64,000 bases of DNA from Candidatus Binatia bacterium (GCA_963664015.2 CAXXLF010000002.1:192001-256000); one strand, 5' to 3'. Counted from the first letter of the stretch, positions 30,302 to 59,450 are shown. The notes: generated by a model from the sequence alone, not told the origin. Numbers and translations: made by a program.

Positions 30302-30588
30302 TATATTGTGTTCCTTGACCACTCAAGCAGAAAGATTCTCCCGACTCCGCCCCTCATACTTACCCGTCTAAGACTTCCAGGCGCGATTTCATTAGGCGCT
30401 ACCTCTAATTTGGCTCAAAACCGGTATGGGCTTGGGTTTGCTCGGCATTAGATCCCCGGAACGCATTTAATGAGCTAATCTGTTGCGTCTTACTGATATA
30501 AGGATCGAAGGAAATGACGAGAGCCTGCTCATTCCGTGTTAAGAAGAAATGGACAGTCGCAATGAGTTACCGGGGCTTTTGCGTACGC

Positions 30589-30795
30589 TTACGCGTCAGG
30601 ACACGGCGATCGCGGGCGTAACCGACCATAGCGGAAGGACGGGCTTTTATCGTGCTTTGTTGGCCCCTCCTTTTGGCGAACCGTGGAGGTCCGAATCACG
30701 CTCTGCATCACCTTGATCTGCTGGTCTATCCTTGCTCTCAGTGCCTGCAACTCTCGCAAAACTCCCTTGAGGGTTGGAGTGAAGTTGATGGCCAT
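30589..30795 (-). CDS. Small hypothetical protein (short coiled coil plus basic tail)
   Basis: 68-aa ORF with strong RBS GAGGAGG before the ATG. Confidence 0.5.
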   Translation of the reverse strand: MAINFTPTLKGVLRELQALRARIDQQIKVMQSVIRTSTVRQKEGPTKHDKSPSFRYGRLRPRSPCPDA

Positions 30796-30900
30796 TGATC
30801 CTCCTCATAGGGACAGTATTCAACACCGTGCAGTTATGTCAACTCGACCTAGCAATTAAACGACGCTTTAATTGAGTCCTACCAAACTGAAAAAGGAAAC

Positions 30901-31011
30901 TTGACAACCCACTGGAACTCATCGATATTACGGGTGACCTTGCAGAGCGGGCATTTAAATTGTTCCCGAGATAGGCTGCGAGGGGGAGAGCCGTATTCCT
31001 AATAGTTAGAT
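30901..31011 (+). promoter_or_regulatory. Promoter plus attI-like site, copy 1
   Basis: TTGACA, 17 bp, GATATT; then a segment shared with 58255..58365 ending in the core site GTTAGAT (GTTRRRY, 31005-31011). Confidence 0.65.
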
Positions 31012-31422
31012 AGACCTACTGTCACAGACGAGGAGTCATGCCAAAAGTCGTATTTACACACTCTGTTAGTGATCCTGCCCATTGGGCGAGCAAGCACTCG
31101 GAGCGAGTTGAACGGTTCGCTTCGTGGGGATCGAACGTGCTCGACTACCTCAGCGCTGACGGCAGCAAAAACGTGGCCGTGAGTGTGAACGTTCACGATC
31201 TGGCGGCCGTACAGCCGGCGCTCGACTCGCCCGAGATCGAGGCCGCGAAGCAGGCTCACGGGGTCCTGGAGCCCCTTACGATCCACGTCGAGAAAACTTA
31301 AGCAAGATTGCGGAGACGCTCTACGACCTGGGAATTTCTAACCAGCGATTGAACTCGACAAAGCTCGCACGTCACTTCGCAGTTGTTCGAATCCTGTAGT
31401 GTCGCGGGTTAATCGCTAATCG
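31006..31422 (+). mobile_element. Integron gene cassette
   Basis: Begins at the GTTRRRY core site; single ORF 31038..31301 followed by an attC. Confidence 0.75.
31038..31301 (+). CDS. Small hypothetical protein (possible dimeric alpha-beta barrel) in a gene cassette
   Basis: RBS GAGGAG; MPKVVFTHSVSDPAHWASKH...AAKQAHGVLEP, 87 aa. Confidence 0.75.
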   Translation: MPKVVFTHSVSDPAHWASKHSERVERFASWGSNVLDYLSADGSKNVAVSVNVHDLAAVQPALDSPEIEAAKQAHGVLEPLTIHVEKT

Positions 31423-31428
31423 TTAGGG
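31336..31428 (+). other. attC recombination site
   Basis: R'' TTCTAAC, 5-bp spacer, L'' ATTGAACT ... L' GGTTAAT, 8-bp spacer, R' GTTAGGG; arms pair CTAAC/GTTAG, AGCGATT/AATCGCT, AAC/GTT with one unpaired G, CGAC/GTCG. Confidence 0.8.
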
Positions 31429-31764
31429 TTGCTACCAATTTTTATCCCCACGATGCAATTCAACGATGCCTCAATTGCATCCTAAAGATTAAATATTGGG
31501 TGTCAGACTAGCCTAGCTGGGCTTACTTGGCCGATTTGCCTGATCAGACTCACAATTTGATTCAGGCCTGAGATTTATCATTAAATACTTCGGATGCTTC
31601 GACCAGGCAACACCCTATCGATCGCGTCTCTTTTCGCCGAATGCTCTACATGCTAGTAAATGGAACCCGCATCCGTCTAATTGGGGGCTCCAACAACAAA
31701 CAAGCGAACCTGCACACCAAGACAGTAGACCAATGAGTTTTTTCAAGGATTCACGGAGCTTACC

Positions 31765-33849
31765 GTGATTCAGCACCACCGTTCCCCAATGATGGGCATC
31801 CTGCCGTACGTGGTAACTATTTTTGTAGGCGCGTTCCTTCTATTCCAGGTGCAGCCCCTGATCACGAAGTACATCTTGCCGTGGTTCGGTGGTGGCCTGA
31901 CGGTATGGACAACCAGCATGTTGTTCTTCCAGGTCTTGCTTCTTGGGGGATACCGTTACGCTCACTTGAGCATCTGTCGGTTTAGACCGCGGCTCCAGGC
32001 ATTGCTCCACGGAGTTTTGTTGCTGGTGGCACTCCTCCAGTGGCGATCACTCCCGACAGCAATTGGAAACCCCTTTCCCCCGCCACCCCGACCTGGGATA
32101 TCCTTCTGGTCCTTGGTGCTACCGTTGGCCTCCCGTACTTTACACTCGCCTCAACCGCGCCATTGATGCAGGCCTGGTTTAGCCAGCATCACCCTGGAGT
32201 TTCACCCTACCGGCTCTACGCCCTCTCCAATACCGCCTCATTGCTGGCACTACTGAGCTATCCCTTCGTGTTCGAGCCGATATTTTCCAGGAGCGTACAG
32301 TCCACGTTGTGGGCCATCGGGTTCGGCGTCTTTGTCATCGCCTCCATGATCGGCGTCTGGGCTACCTGGAAGCGCGGGTCGATCCCGTCCCTCGCACAAG
32401 ACAGCACGAACCTGACCCAACAGGAACTCCCCCATCCAACCACAGGAATCCGTGCCCTTTGGCTAGCGCTTCCGGCCTGTGCGGTAGGGCTGCTTCTGGC
32501 GGTTACCAACCAGATCACTATGGACCTGGTTATTGTCCCCTTTCTCTGGGTATTGCTTTTATGTCTGTACCTCTTGACCTTTATATTAAGCTTCGAGGGC
32601 GAGCGCTGGGACTCCCGCCCGGTCTTTTTGTGAACATCTTTACCAGCGCTGATCGGAGCACTGGTCATGCTGACCGTCAGGGAAGATGCAGACGTCATCT
32701 TGCAGATTGTGGCTTTCTCCGGGATACTTTTCGTCTGCTGCATGATATGCCACAGAGAACTCAGCCGTCTCAAGCCGCATCCAAGGTGTCTGACGGGCTA
32801 CTACCTTATGATCTCTCTAGGTGGCGCCCTGGGTGGTGTGTTCGTTACCCTTATCGCGCCGGTGATCTTCCTCAATTATCTGGAGCTCCACGTCGGCCTG
32901 CTGGGTACCGGGGCCCTTTCCTTCTTGGCCCTTTATAAGGATAACGGCTCCTGGTTCCATCAGAAACGGGTGTCCTGGGGTGTCATCCCGTTGATCACCG
33001 TTTATGTTATCGTTGCGGCGCTGTTTATCGCAACGCCAGGGCAACACATCCGTCCGCCATCGCCCGAGCACGGAATTTCTACGGTGTCCTCACGGTGCAG
33101 CAGCACTTCCGAGGCTCCCCTAATGAGCAACTCCATCTCCGCCACGGACGAATTCTCCACGGGACACAGTTTATGGCCCCTGGCAGGGGCGTGTGGCAAG
33201 CGGCTATTACGCTGAAAACAGTGGGGCGGGCCTGGTTTTTCGATACTTTCCACGAAAGCGCGAACGTCGAATCGGCGTCGTAGGCCTGGGGGCGGGTTAC
33301 CTTTCCCTCTATCACCGTGAGGGAGATACGATGAGGATTTACGAGATTAACCCGGAAATCCGGCGTTTAGCCGAATCGCACTCTACCTATCTGAAGGATT
33401 CCCCAGCCGAAATTGTGATTGTCATGGGGGATGGTCGTTTGGCGATGGAGCCTGACCTGCCTCAGGAGTTCGATATCCTAGTCCTGGACGCCTTTACTGG
33501 AGATTCGATTCCTGTGCATCTGCTAACCATTGAAGCTTTCCAGACGTACCTTCGCCACCTCACGACCGATGGCGTCATCGCTATCCTGATCGACACAATC
33601 CACCTGGATTTCGAGCCCGTGATCAGGCGGCTTGCGGCCCATTTCGGATTGGAGTCCATTAGAGTCGACTCTCCACCAGAGACCGACAATGAGGCGGGAA
33701 CCAGCTGGATGCTGCTATCCCGGGCTGGGGAGTTTTTCAGCTTGCCGCCTGGAGCCGGGGCTGCCACTCCCGATCACGTAAAATACGACGACCTCCAGTT
33801 GTGGACCGGTGACTACGTAAGCCTTTTTCCCTTACTCCAGTTCCGATGA
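31765..33849 (+). pseudogene. Fused membrane / spermidine-synthase-like SAM methyltransferase, broken into at least 4 fragments
   Basis: AFLLFQVQP..K.ILPWFGG, SPYRLYALSN, CMICHRELSRLKP, HGRILHGTQ, IGVVGLGAG, GDGRL, LVLDAFTGDSIPVHLLT spread over different frames with stops. Confidence 0.85.
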
Positions 33850-57693: not shown

Positions 57694-57881
57694 CCACGGG
57701 CTTAAGCCCGTGGTATCCATCATTTCTTTGGCGGAATCCGCCGAAACACCCTCCTTCGCTCGCCCCGTGGAGTAGGTTCTTATTCGTGGGGTCTCGTCTC
57801 GATCATGGAAAGTACTCCACGGGGCGAATTGAGCTTCGGAGGGTCCAACCGTCGCATTCATCCATGGGCTTACGCCCATGG
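57694..57881. repeat. Composite palindromic element (terminal 20-bp hairpins around a 68-bp IR element)
   Basis: CCACGGGCTTAAGCCCGTGG (57694-57713) and CCATGGGCTTACGCCCATGG (57862-57881) flank TCGCCCCGTGGAGTA...TACTCCACGGGGCGA (57760-57827). Confidence 0.75.
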
Positions 57882-58254
57882 TCTTCTGGGAAAGCGGATC
57901 AAATCCAAGGCATCACTCCAGCCTAAGTCCTCCTGAGAAACCCAAACATTTCAAAACCCACAGGTATCCCTAATGGGGCTTAAATCGCTCATGCCTACAC
58001 TGAATCAGGCACATTCTGTGCACAGTTATCAGGATATTTAATGCCGGGAGCGTTAGAGGTTCAATTCTGTCAATTCTGTCTGCCTCCAATCCCGCTCTGG
58101 GCCAGGATTTGCTCTGCATCAGACTGTTAAGACTCAATTCCTTAGCTAATTAACTGCCGCTTGCGGCCCTGCTGGTCTGTTCCAACATTTGTTTGTGATC
58201 CTGGATATAATCGGGACAGATTGCCAATCGGCGGTGTTTCCCAATACAAGAATC

Positions 58255-58365
58255 TTAACAAACTGCTAGAAAGCAATCGATATTACGGGTGATTCTGCAA
58301 AGCGGGGAATAAAGGGTTTTCGAGATAGGCCGCAAGGGCGAGAGCGGTATACCTAATAGTCATGC
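58255..58365 (+). promoter_or_regulatory. Promoter plus attI-like site, copy 2 (degenerate)
   Basis: About 70/86 identity by hand alignment of 58276-58360 to 30921-31006; -35 TTAACA, core GTCATGC. Confidence 0.55.
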
Positions 58366-58645
58366 ATATTAAAACAATACGAAAATTAATCATCATTATA
58401 AGCATCCTTGCTCTGTAGATGTATCGCATGCCACAAGGCTGGAAAGAATATCGACTGATGATCTATTTACTCGTGCAGATCACGTATTCACAGGGAAAGT
58501 AATTAAGATTGAGTTAATCGACAGGAAGAGCGGTATTGTTCAAAGTGAAGCTTCTCCAACCGGATCACGAAGTGGTAATAAAATACGAATGTCTATCGAA
58601 ATATATGATGTAATTAAAACAACATCCAAAACAGAAATCCCTCTT
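58362..58645 (+). pseudogene. AT-rich remnant of a secreted-protein gene (likely cassette remnant)
   Basis: MHIKTIRKLIIIISILAL, frameshift, then VDVSHATRLERISTDDLFTRADHVFTGKVIKIELID...; the ATG lies inside the core-like site. Confidence 0.5.
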
Positions 58646-58745
58646 TCCCATGCCCGGGGAGAGGAGTGTTTGCCGGAATTGAGGACTGCTTGCTCCACTC
58701 GATATACAATTCAAGCGCGCGAGGCACGCCCTTTCCCTTCTATGG

Positions 58746-59450
58746 CTAAAACCCATTCATGTGAAGGGTGAGGACAAAGGCCTTTCGCATCCCGTCCTGA
58801 AGTTCCGGCGTATTGATGTATCGCCTAACGACGTCCGCTCCTAGTTCGGCGTGTTCGATATCCACATCGGCGTGCTCGATCTTGAACGCCAGGGCCCGCT
58901 CTACATCTTTTATGCCCATCTCTGCGTATTCTTTGCGTAATACGTCAATGTTATCCAAAAGTCGTTGTCTGATCTCCGGGATCCTCTTCTCCCCCTCACC
59001 CACAAGCGAACTGCCGATGGCAACCGCCCAGTGCCCGGTGCGATGCAGATTGACCCGCCAACCCCATATGATCAGCTTTTCCGGACTGCAGTCTTCCTGT
59101 TCCAGCCGTGTGATTTCTTCGTCAGTCAGGCCGAACTCCTGCGATTCCCACCGTGCCAGGATAGGGTGACTGGGCGTTTTACCACCCACTGTGGTTTGCC
59201 CACCCTCGTCGATCAGCTTACGTAGTTGCCGGCGGCGGATTTCCTTGTCCGTACAGTTTAGATACCGCTCACCCTCGAATCTGTGGTTATTATCTCCTCC
59301 ACGGTGGTATCTACGCCGGGCTTCGAGGATTTCCCCTTTGCTCTTGTAACGGGGGCACGGTCGGAGCAGCCCGCCTCCGAGGTGGTTTTTTCTATGTTGC
59401 TCCAATTCTTCAAGTAATTCGTCGCCGGTGATCAATTTCTGCTTCTCCAT
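58746..59450 (-). CDS. Heme-oxygenase-fold iron-containing redox family protein (divergent)
   Basis: NC.D.EIRR..LRKLIDEGG...SHP...GEGE...EHADVDIEH candidate ligands; probable ATG at 59450 with RBS GGAGAG. Confidence 0.7.
   Translation of the reverse strand: MEKQKLITGDELLEELEQHRKNHLGGGLLRPCPRYKSKGEILEARRRYHRGGDNNHRFEGERYLNCTDKEIRRRQLRKLIDEGGQTTVGGKTPSHPILARWESQEFGLTDEEITRLEQEDCSPEKLIIWGWRVNLHRTGHWAVAIGSSLVGEGEKRIPEIRQRLLDNIDVLRKEYAEMGIKDVERALAFKIEHADVDIEHAELGADVVRRYINTPELQDGMRKAFVLTLHMNGF

Follow-up and report, generated by a model that had tools for sequence, protein, structure and literature searches.

Orphan attI-like sites with putative internal promoters in a Candidatus Binatia genome as probable relics of integrons that lost their integrase gene

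Introduction

In atypical integrons of the Treponema type, the integrase gene intI is transcribed toward attI (PMC3607928), and the attI site itself has been described in terms of L and R boxes (PMC12614218). Outside class 1, attI is poorly described and is not detected by IntegronFinder, according to the account given in PMC9024848. Integrase-less loci that consist of one attC site or a small attC cluster are reported to outnumber complete integrons, and the same report treats as open whether small integrase-less loci are remnants or the result of genomic insertion (10.1101/2022.09.11.507474).

Here, we analysed a window of 64,000 nt, which is the whole stretch of DNA under study (G000:C2:192001-256000; GCA_963664015.2 CAXXLF010000002.1), from a Candidatus Binatia bacterium whose 3.5-Mb assembly consists of two contigs and is 97% complete. 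Positions given without a contig are those of the window. An earlier note, made from the sequence alone, had described two dispersed copies of a promoter plus attI-like module in this window and read them as satellite attI platforms that a single integrase loads in trans; integron relics devoid of intI, or a conserved leader RNA, were named as alternatives. Comparison with related genomes points to the relics. The module is very probably an attI that contains its own cassette promoter (Pc) and no longer has an integrase beside it, and copy B a fossil of such a site.

Results

The two copies of the module were compared by global alignment. Module A (30921..31006, plus strand) and module B (58276..58360, plus strand) were identical in 70 of 86 columns with one 1-nt gap, in agreement with the hand count of about 70/86 in the earlier note, and the 17-nt run ATCGATATTACGGGTGA and the block CCTAATAGT were identical in both. 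Within-genome BLAST aligned the two copies with 81% identity (E=1.8e-16). Module A comprises the -10/start region, the repeat CGAGATAGGCTGC (30967-30979) and the core CCTAATAG|TT, in which G 31005 is the crossover point; module B comprises the -10/start region, the third repeat CGAGATAGGCCGC (58321-58333) and the core CCTAATAG|T (58352-58360). Over the ~45 nt upstream, which take in a sigma-70-like promoter, the similarity was lower (28 of 49 columns). A consensus scan placed a Pc-like promoter at 30901..30929 on the plus strand for A (TTGACA-17-GATATT, 10/12 matches) and at 58255..58284 on the plus strand for B (TTAACA-18-GATATT), the latter directed toward the cassette position. Among the public runs listed for the B stretch there was no RNA run.

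The similarity between A and B stopped at ...CCTAATAGT, with identity lost after ...AATAGT, beyond which copy A reads TAGATAGACC and copy B reads CATGCATATT. Sequence comparison of the left and right flanks found nothing further in common. The homology therefore ends at the GT of the core, as had been claimed, and A continues as the core GTTAGAT; B, however, reads GTCATGC and so is not a GTTRRRY core site, which leaves A as the sole copy that qualifies. Accordingly, a crossover inside the GTT of a GTTRRRY-like core marks the 5' cassette boundary at A and was not found at B.

Exactly two copies of the A/B form were found in the 3.5-Mb genome by BLAST. A two-sequence A/B profile searched against the whole genome with nhmmer --max gave the same two matches below 1e-38, the next having E=0.79. 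In relatives, BLAST with the module returned no match in 40 genomes, and in 400 genomes of the phylum it returned two short matches of 30 and 44 nt that were judged to be chance in context, one lying inside an apparent coding region and the other being a 43-nt patch without further module similarity. The exact 17-mer occurred in 60 metagenome stretches, none of which extended past the neighbourhood of the 17-mer; 13 of the 60 gave nhmmer matches of at most 20 bits, none beyond profile position 95 of 136. Moreover, the module profile gave no match at E<=1 in 30 intI loci of the phylum, and the best match in the genome that carries copy A's cassette (G041) had E=1.22. The module was also absent upstream of all 29 other loci that encode copy A's 87-aa protein. 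Many copies followed by cassettes, one of them beside intI, had been named as support for the satellite proposal; what was found instead was two A/B copies leading into different genes, neither with an adjoining intI, of which A leads into a cassette with an attC and B into a gene without one.

The gene behind copy A lies in a cassette at 31006..31422 on the plus strand, with an 87-aa ORF at 31038-31301 and an attC-like site at 31337-31428 (TCTAAC...GTTAGGG). When 30800-31500 was compared with a locus (L022) of G041, a metagenome-assembled genome whose record is labelled Deltaproteobacteria bacterium, the homology began exactly at GTTAGA (G 31005) and ended exactly at CGTTA (G 31422), covering the 87-aa ORF and the imperfect inverted repeat TCTAAC...GTTAGGG. 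The bottom strand of this attC-like repeat folds as a stem of R-box, unpaired spacer and L-box. Among the 29 other 87-aa loci, only L022 shares the last ~35 nt of the leader and the attC repeat. G041 has a full integron integrase (457 bits vs. a cut-off of 265) with a GATAGGC-type attI after its stop codon. Judged by its ends, which are fixed by the comparison with L022, the gene behind copy A is a true integron cassette. One attC-like site without a nearby integrase was found at A, as in the SALIN/CALIN class; B has no attC candidate and therefore is not itself a member of that class.

Several observations concern the genes around the cassette. The 87-aa protein had 172 protein matches at E<=0.01, and the 120 listed were 66-89% identical and almost all 87 aa long. 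The 30 loci that were fetched carried the labels Acidobacteriota, Gemmatimonadota, Binataceae, Gammaproteobacteria, Flavobacteriaceae and Actinomycetes, and in 28 of the 29 other loci the gene lay outside a recognisable cassette. Pfam returned nothing for the 87-aa protein, the gene remnant behind copy B or the small flanking ORFs. Downstream of cassette A (31765-33849), four overlapping ORFs (31765-32166, 32040-32633, 32667-33215 and 33193-33849) are the pieces of a membrane spermidine-synthase-like gene, which either is a pseudogene or contains indel errors.

Integron integrases scored above the cut-off in 136 of 401 genomes of the phylum. In G000, the best TIGR02249 match (260 bits) lies at C2:382429-383309 on the minus strand (L014 1361-2241), 127-160 kb from the modules of the window, and is the sole intI of the assembly; no other TIGR02249 match near the cut-off was found in the genome. 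Its product is 62% identical to the G041 IntI over residues 6-251, followed by a frameshift and by residues 256-303, after which the homology ends, so that ~55 C-terminal residues including the catalytic end are missing. The 5' end of this pseudogene abuts a dnaE2-like ORF, with intI directly downstream, and nothing attI-like and no cassettes were found after its 3' end. The intergenic sequence of relatives was too diverged to fix the breakpoints of a supposed inversion parting intI from attI. In the window, no TIGR02249 match was found, and tblastn with a full IntI gave a best E of 0.38 with nothing beside the modules. This result upheld the earlier statement that neither copy has an adjacent integrase. 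It also counts against attI identity, since a position adjoining intI is what usually defines an attI. An intact intI could lie on an unassembled replicon, the assembly being 97% complete.

The attI family of the window's order was defined by comparison. The IntI fragment of G000 was matched at E<=1e-50 by 39 of 123 genomes of the order, a tally that counts two unpublished genomes whose loci were left out of all analyses. The 330 nt after the intI stop codon were read in 28 intI loci of the order, and 17 of these showed short direct repeats, a TTGACA-type promoter, another repeat, a core ...GTTAG/GTTAT, and then an SD sequence and ATG. Two more showed the start of this layout before the contig end, five had no sequence after the stop, and four had nothing recognisable. 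In the layout of the order, intI is transcribed toward attI and the cassettes, on the same strand. A GATAGGC subtype with the core TCACTTAATAG|TT was formed by four loci (L183, L188, L189 and L191) and by G041's own locus. The promoter of the L191 attI, TTGACA-17-GATATT, has the same hexamers and spacing as that of module A, and ...CACTTAATAGT of L191 also resembles the module. Beside the 30 phylum intI loci, the tripled GATAGG motif was seen at G041-type loci alone.

Across 123 genomes of the order, the pattern GATAGGC..CTTGAC..TCACTTAA was matched 16 times, in 12 genomes, and a reversed control gave no match; the 16 include one unpublished genome whose locus was dropped, and 13 are the matches in other published genomes. 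Upstream of these 13, a full intI was present in five cases, only its last 110-150 residues in two, a stub of at most 62 residues in three, and none by tblastn in three. This decay series, from full intI through stubs to attI alone, indicated that loss of intI with attI and Pc kept recurs in the lineage. In two related genomes (locus L205 of G515 and locus L210 of G519), the attI core leads into a sequence common to both and then into a second tyrosine recombinase only ~30% identical to IntI.

A profile was built from the four foreign attIs L183, L188, L189 and L191, from promoter to core, and searched against the whole of G000 with nhmmer. The first two matches were C2:2237107-2237249 (E=1.7e-6) and C1:657491-657634 (E=3.3e-6), and the third was module B over profile positions 6-135 (E=3.3). 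The first two belong to complete attIs outside the window, attI-1 (C2:2237025-2237249, in a unit at C2:2237025-2237960, L193 4025-4965) and attI-2 (C1:657411-657634, in a unit at C1:657411-658360, L194 4411-5360). The gene behind each is DUF1993 (Pfam E=6.6e-49), and after it comes a short attC hairpin of very high stability (z -4.6, with 0 of 200 shuffles folding as well). The two units are 93% identical over 984 nt, lie on different contigs and share a left edge, AATAG|TTAGGGAGGCC (AATAG|TTAGGG), that resembles a cassette-type junction; folded as possible attC, the left flanks of attI-1 and attI-2 gave z -0.92 and z +0.09, the second being a negative result. No integrase was found near attI-1 or attI-2, the neighbours being ordinary, unrelated genes. 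The presence of the same DUF1993 cassette at both sites indicated duplication of the unit and not independent loading. In total, G000 has four attI sites without intI and one intI without attI. About 2.5 kb after attI-1, at L193 6700-10400 (C2:2239700-2243400), there are long tandem repeats of ~340 nt with 63-98% identity, which occur both inside a gene whose product has a Big_5 Ig-like domain and beyond it.

The homology of the modules to these attIs was evaluated by profile and pairwise comparison. In the window alone, B was the top match of the foreign-attI profile (E=0.061, and 0.0077 with attI-1 added), and its genome-wide support was weak (E=3.3 or 0.43). Module A was not recovered at E<200 in the attI profile searches, and the A/B two-copy profile touched C2:2237125-2237249 weakly (E=18). 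In local alignment to attI-1 with +5/-4 scoring, B reached a score of 199 against 108+-15 for shuffles, with 0 of 2000 as high, and A reached 142, with 20 of 2000 as high. With strict +2/-3 scoring, the match to attI-1 shrank to the GATAGGC motif and was not significant (111 and 52 of 1000 shuffles as high). Homology to attI was thus found by profile and pairwise comparison for B and by pairwise comparison for A; because the profiles do not recover A, its link to attI rests on its homology to B and the modest pairwise test. The motif GATAGGCNGC occurs at 28 sites in the genome, which is the chance frequency.

A four-way alignment brought the modules into collinear register with attI over the -35 and -10 boxes, the core and the third repeat, which reads CGAGATAGGCYGC in the modules, and the positions of the -35 and -10 boxes of A and B are conserved in attI-1, attI-2 and the foreign attIs. 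Relative to attI-1, both modules lack 12 nt between the third repeat and the core. The homology of module A stops ~20 nt before the -35 box. Furthermore, the alignment extended attI-B upstream into a decayed 5' half (58166..58254, plus strand) that keeps a GGCRGYRWTTG box, GGCGGTGTTT (~58228-58240), and mutated remnants of the two upstream GATAGGC-type repeats. The profile alignment of this left part begins at 58231 and the local alignment to attI-1 at 58228, and similarity is weak to the left of 58228. These findings bear out the promoter plus attI-like module of the earlier note, which is homologous to attIs lying directly 3' of intI in relatives.

The stretch behind copy B (58362..58636, plus strand) is what is left of a foreign AT-rich gene whose product would be a small secreted protein, with an ATG at 58362, a signal peptide and a frame broken at ~58415. 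The GC content after B is 0.34-0.44 in 100-nt windows vs. 0.54 for the genome, and the stretch is an AT-rich gene remnant, as had been noted. An intact relative, P0121 (145 aa, 93% identical), matches the gene over its residues 19-92 only, in the second frame, and the homology ends at about residue 92; therefore, the gene of B has shifted out of frame and its 3' third is gone. No P0121-like gene was matched in the 122 other genomes of the order. Our own crude scan of 58300-58800 yielded no attC-like candidate; this scanner, which uses R''/R' boxes and arm alignment, is unspecific (613 genome-wide candidates at a score of at least 7 on both strands, with a true attC scoring 8). The frame break and truncation were unchanged in contigs of public runs from two studies, a confirmation that is not fully independent because the source of the assembly may be among them. 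A second contig, ~2.4 kb long and present in three public runs, matches just the 45 nt of 58165-58209 with four differences; it has the hairpin repeat before and unrelated sequence after this stretch, and represents another copy of the repeat-attI junction, or a relative's.

In class 1 integrons, positions 2 and 3 of the GTT tolerate mutation in one partner site, as reported in PMC2811028, so the GTC of B (AATAG|TCATG) is by itself no proof of inactivity. The whole picture, with mutated repeats, GTC, a broken gene, no attC and a dead intI, points to inactivity, and copy B looks like a fossil.

The genomic context was examined in two genomes of the same family (G002 and G004), which retain the genes flanking A and B at 72-81% nucleotide identity. 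The intergenic gaps at A and B are ~126 and 208 nt in G002 vs. 1563 and 1125 nt in G000, indicating that both modules lie inside genome-specific insertions of ~1.0-1.4 kb. A dispersed repeat of ~80-100 nt with a hairpin end (GAC.CAATT...AATT..G.C; 58070..58165, plus strand) was found by BLAST in at least three other places and aligned in eight members; it abuts the 5' end of the decayed attI-B, and a repeat of the same type lies before module A (~30405-30500). In addition, a 33-nt palindromic form from this repeat family, GCAATTAAACGACGCTTTAATTGAGTC... (30852..30884, plus strand), abuts the 5' end of module A. It has 15 genome matches including itself, on both strands, and its motif also occurs ~45 nt after the attC of attI-2's DUF1993 cassette. 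Further short repeats (~60-75 nt, dozens of copies) lie at 57700-57905, and 30418-30854, the 437 nt upstream of module A, has an 87% identical copy at C1:748655-749090. The hairpin repeats may have mediated loss of intI or relocation of the platform.

Discussion

The results argue that the module covers the 3' two-thirds of an integron attI in which a cassette promoter is embedded. In the working layout of this order, the stop codon of intI is directly followed by two GATAGGC-type repeats, a GGCRGYRWTTG box, a TTGACA/-10 promoter, a third GATAGGC-type repeat, the core ...C(A/C)(C/T)TAATAG|TT and, on the strand of intI, the first cassette. This scheme, which places Pc between the second and the third of three GATAGGC-type repeats, is a description drawn from the alignments here and not a published attI model. 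IntI would have bound the repeats and the core and recombined a circular cassette, through its attC, at G|TT; Pc, if it fires as predicted from its boxes, would have transcribed whatever was inserted.

Of the readings offered beforehand, relics of integrons without intI fit best, as relatives show every stage of the decay. The scatter of several intI-less attIs was borne out, with four in the genome, but the part of that claim that made them working platforms loaded in trans was not supported. Two processes could have produced the scatter. One is the loss of intI from separate integrons, as suggested by the decay series and by the truncation of A and B at unlike 5' points. The other is the copying of a unit without intI, to which the left edge shared by attI-1 and attI-2 points.

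Copying could be carried further, such that intI-less attI-Pc-cassette units were copied to new intergenic sites and became dispersed platforms for capture and expression, used in trans. The identity, common edge and unrelated neighbourhoods of attI-1 and attI-2 would then mean that an intI-less unit was duplicated after intI was lost; the integrase would be encoded elsewhere, either now decayed in this genome or on an unassembled replicon, and A and B would be older products. We consider this extended version unlikely.

Working satellite attI-Pc sites that still capture cassettes through an integrase acting in trans, as the earlier note proposed, are improbable as well. In their favour, the first gene differs among the four intI-less attIs (DUF1993 at two of them, the 87-aa gene and the P0121-like gene at one each), A and B carry different genes although they are sister sites with the 12-nt deletion in common, the third repeat and core are among the best-conserved A/B blocks, attI-1 and attI-2 look intact, and another intI could be missing from the 97% complete assembly. 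However, had A and B each possessed an intI at one time, their differing cassettes would be expected just as well, and the same cassette at attI-1 and attI-2, 93% identical over 984 nt, reflects duplication. Moreover, the sole intI is a frameshifted pseudogene without the catalytic C-terminus, with no other TIGR02249 match near the cut-off, and B is decayed, with a GTC core and a frameshifted, truncated gene that lacks an attC. No observation here favours working platforms.

Chance insertion of cassette A at an attG-type site, next to an ordinary duplicated promoter and with a coincidental GT end, is very improbable. Integrases do insert cassettes at many non-att sites, giving single attC loci without an integrase (10.1101/2022.09.11.507474), and A is formally such a locus. 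However, the module aligns end to end with the attIs of related integrons and with attI-1 and attI-2. Such an insertion implies an unrelated target and an empty site whose sequence continues after the cassette, and neither was found; the sequence after cassette A is unlike that after B, which rules out B as the empty site.

A conserved 5' leader RNA or riboswitch-like element that, together with its promoter, controls two unrelated genes would account for the good promoter before both copies and for the ~75 nt conserved between the -10 box and the genes. However, no Rfam family matched at the gathering score in the window (at E<=10, three spurious matches for B and none for A), the folds were no better than those of shuffles (z +0.47 and -1.04), the two minimum-free-energy folds differ, and the module is homologous to attI regions. 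The leader RNA, which had been raised as an alternative to attI, was rejected given the absence of the module at the 29 other 87-aa loci, and is scarcely credible. Finally, the end of an insertion sequence or MITE, which the dispersed hairpin repeats directly 5' of both copies might bring to mind, has practically no claim on a module that exists in two copies without an inverted partner or a nearby transposase, next to repeats that are separate elements with many copies of their own.

With the module read as an attI that lost its integrase, an attI specific to a lineage and defined by comparison was sufficient to assign four integrase-less loci an integron-platform origin, and the same approach could sort integrase-less loci in other lineages. 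Each orphan site has kept a promoter, which suggests that expression of captured genes can outlast the integrase, and the duplicated intI-less unit hints that platforms, beyond cassettes alone, may move. A limited literature search found no description of several intI-less attI-Pc-cassette units in one chromosome.

Several described systems share parts of this arrangement. Fragments of attI away from intI, and attI-bounded units movable by IntI1, are reported for the Delta-attI-type cassettes of mobile integrons (PMC12901181). In that account, however, the fragments lie in class 1 and class 2 plasmid arrays with intI, whereas here whole attI-Pc-cassette units stand alone in chromosomal intergenic regions of an environmental bacterium. 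Like CALIN/SALIN loci, A, attI-1 and attI-2 each have one cassette and one attC and no integrase nearby. Unlike them, they keep a recognisable attI and Pc before the cassette, which favours an integron-platform origin over attG insertion, and copy B, without an attC, would be missed by attC-based tools. The Treponema-type layout is shared in having a site at the 5' edge of the first cassette, a G|TT crossover in a GTTRRRY-like core (copy A), a predicted promoter reading into the cassettes and, in the order, a homologous site after the intI stop on the cassette strand. In contrast to that layout, no intI adjoins the sites described here, the upstream repeat pair is decayed (B) or replaced (A), and four such sites occur in one genome whose sole intI is dead and elsewhere.
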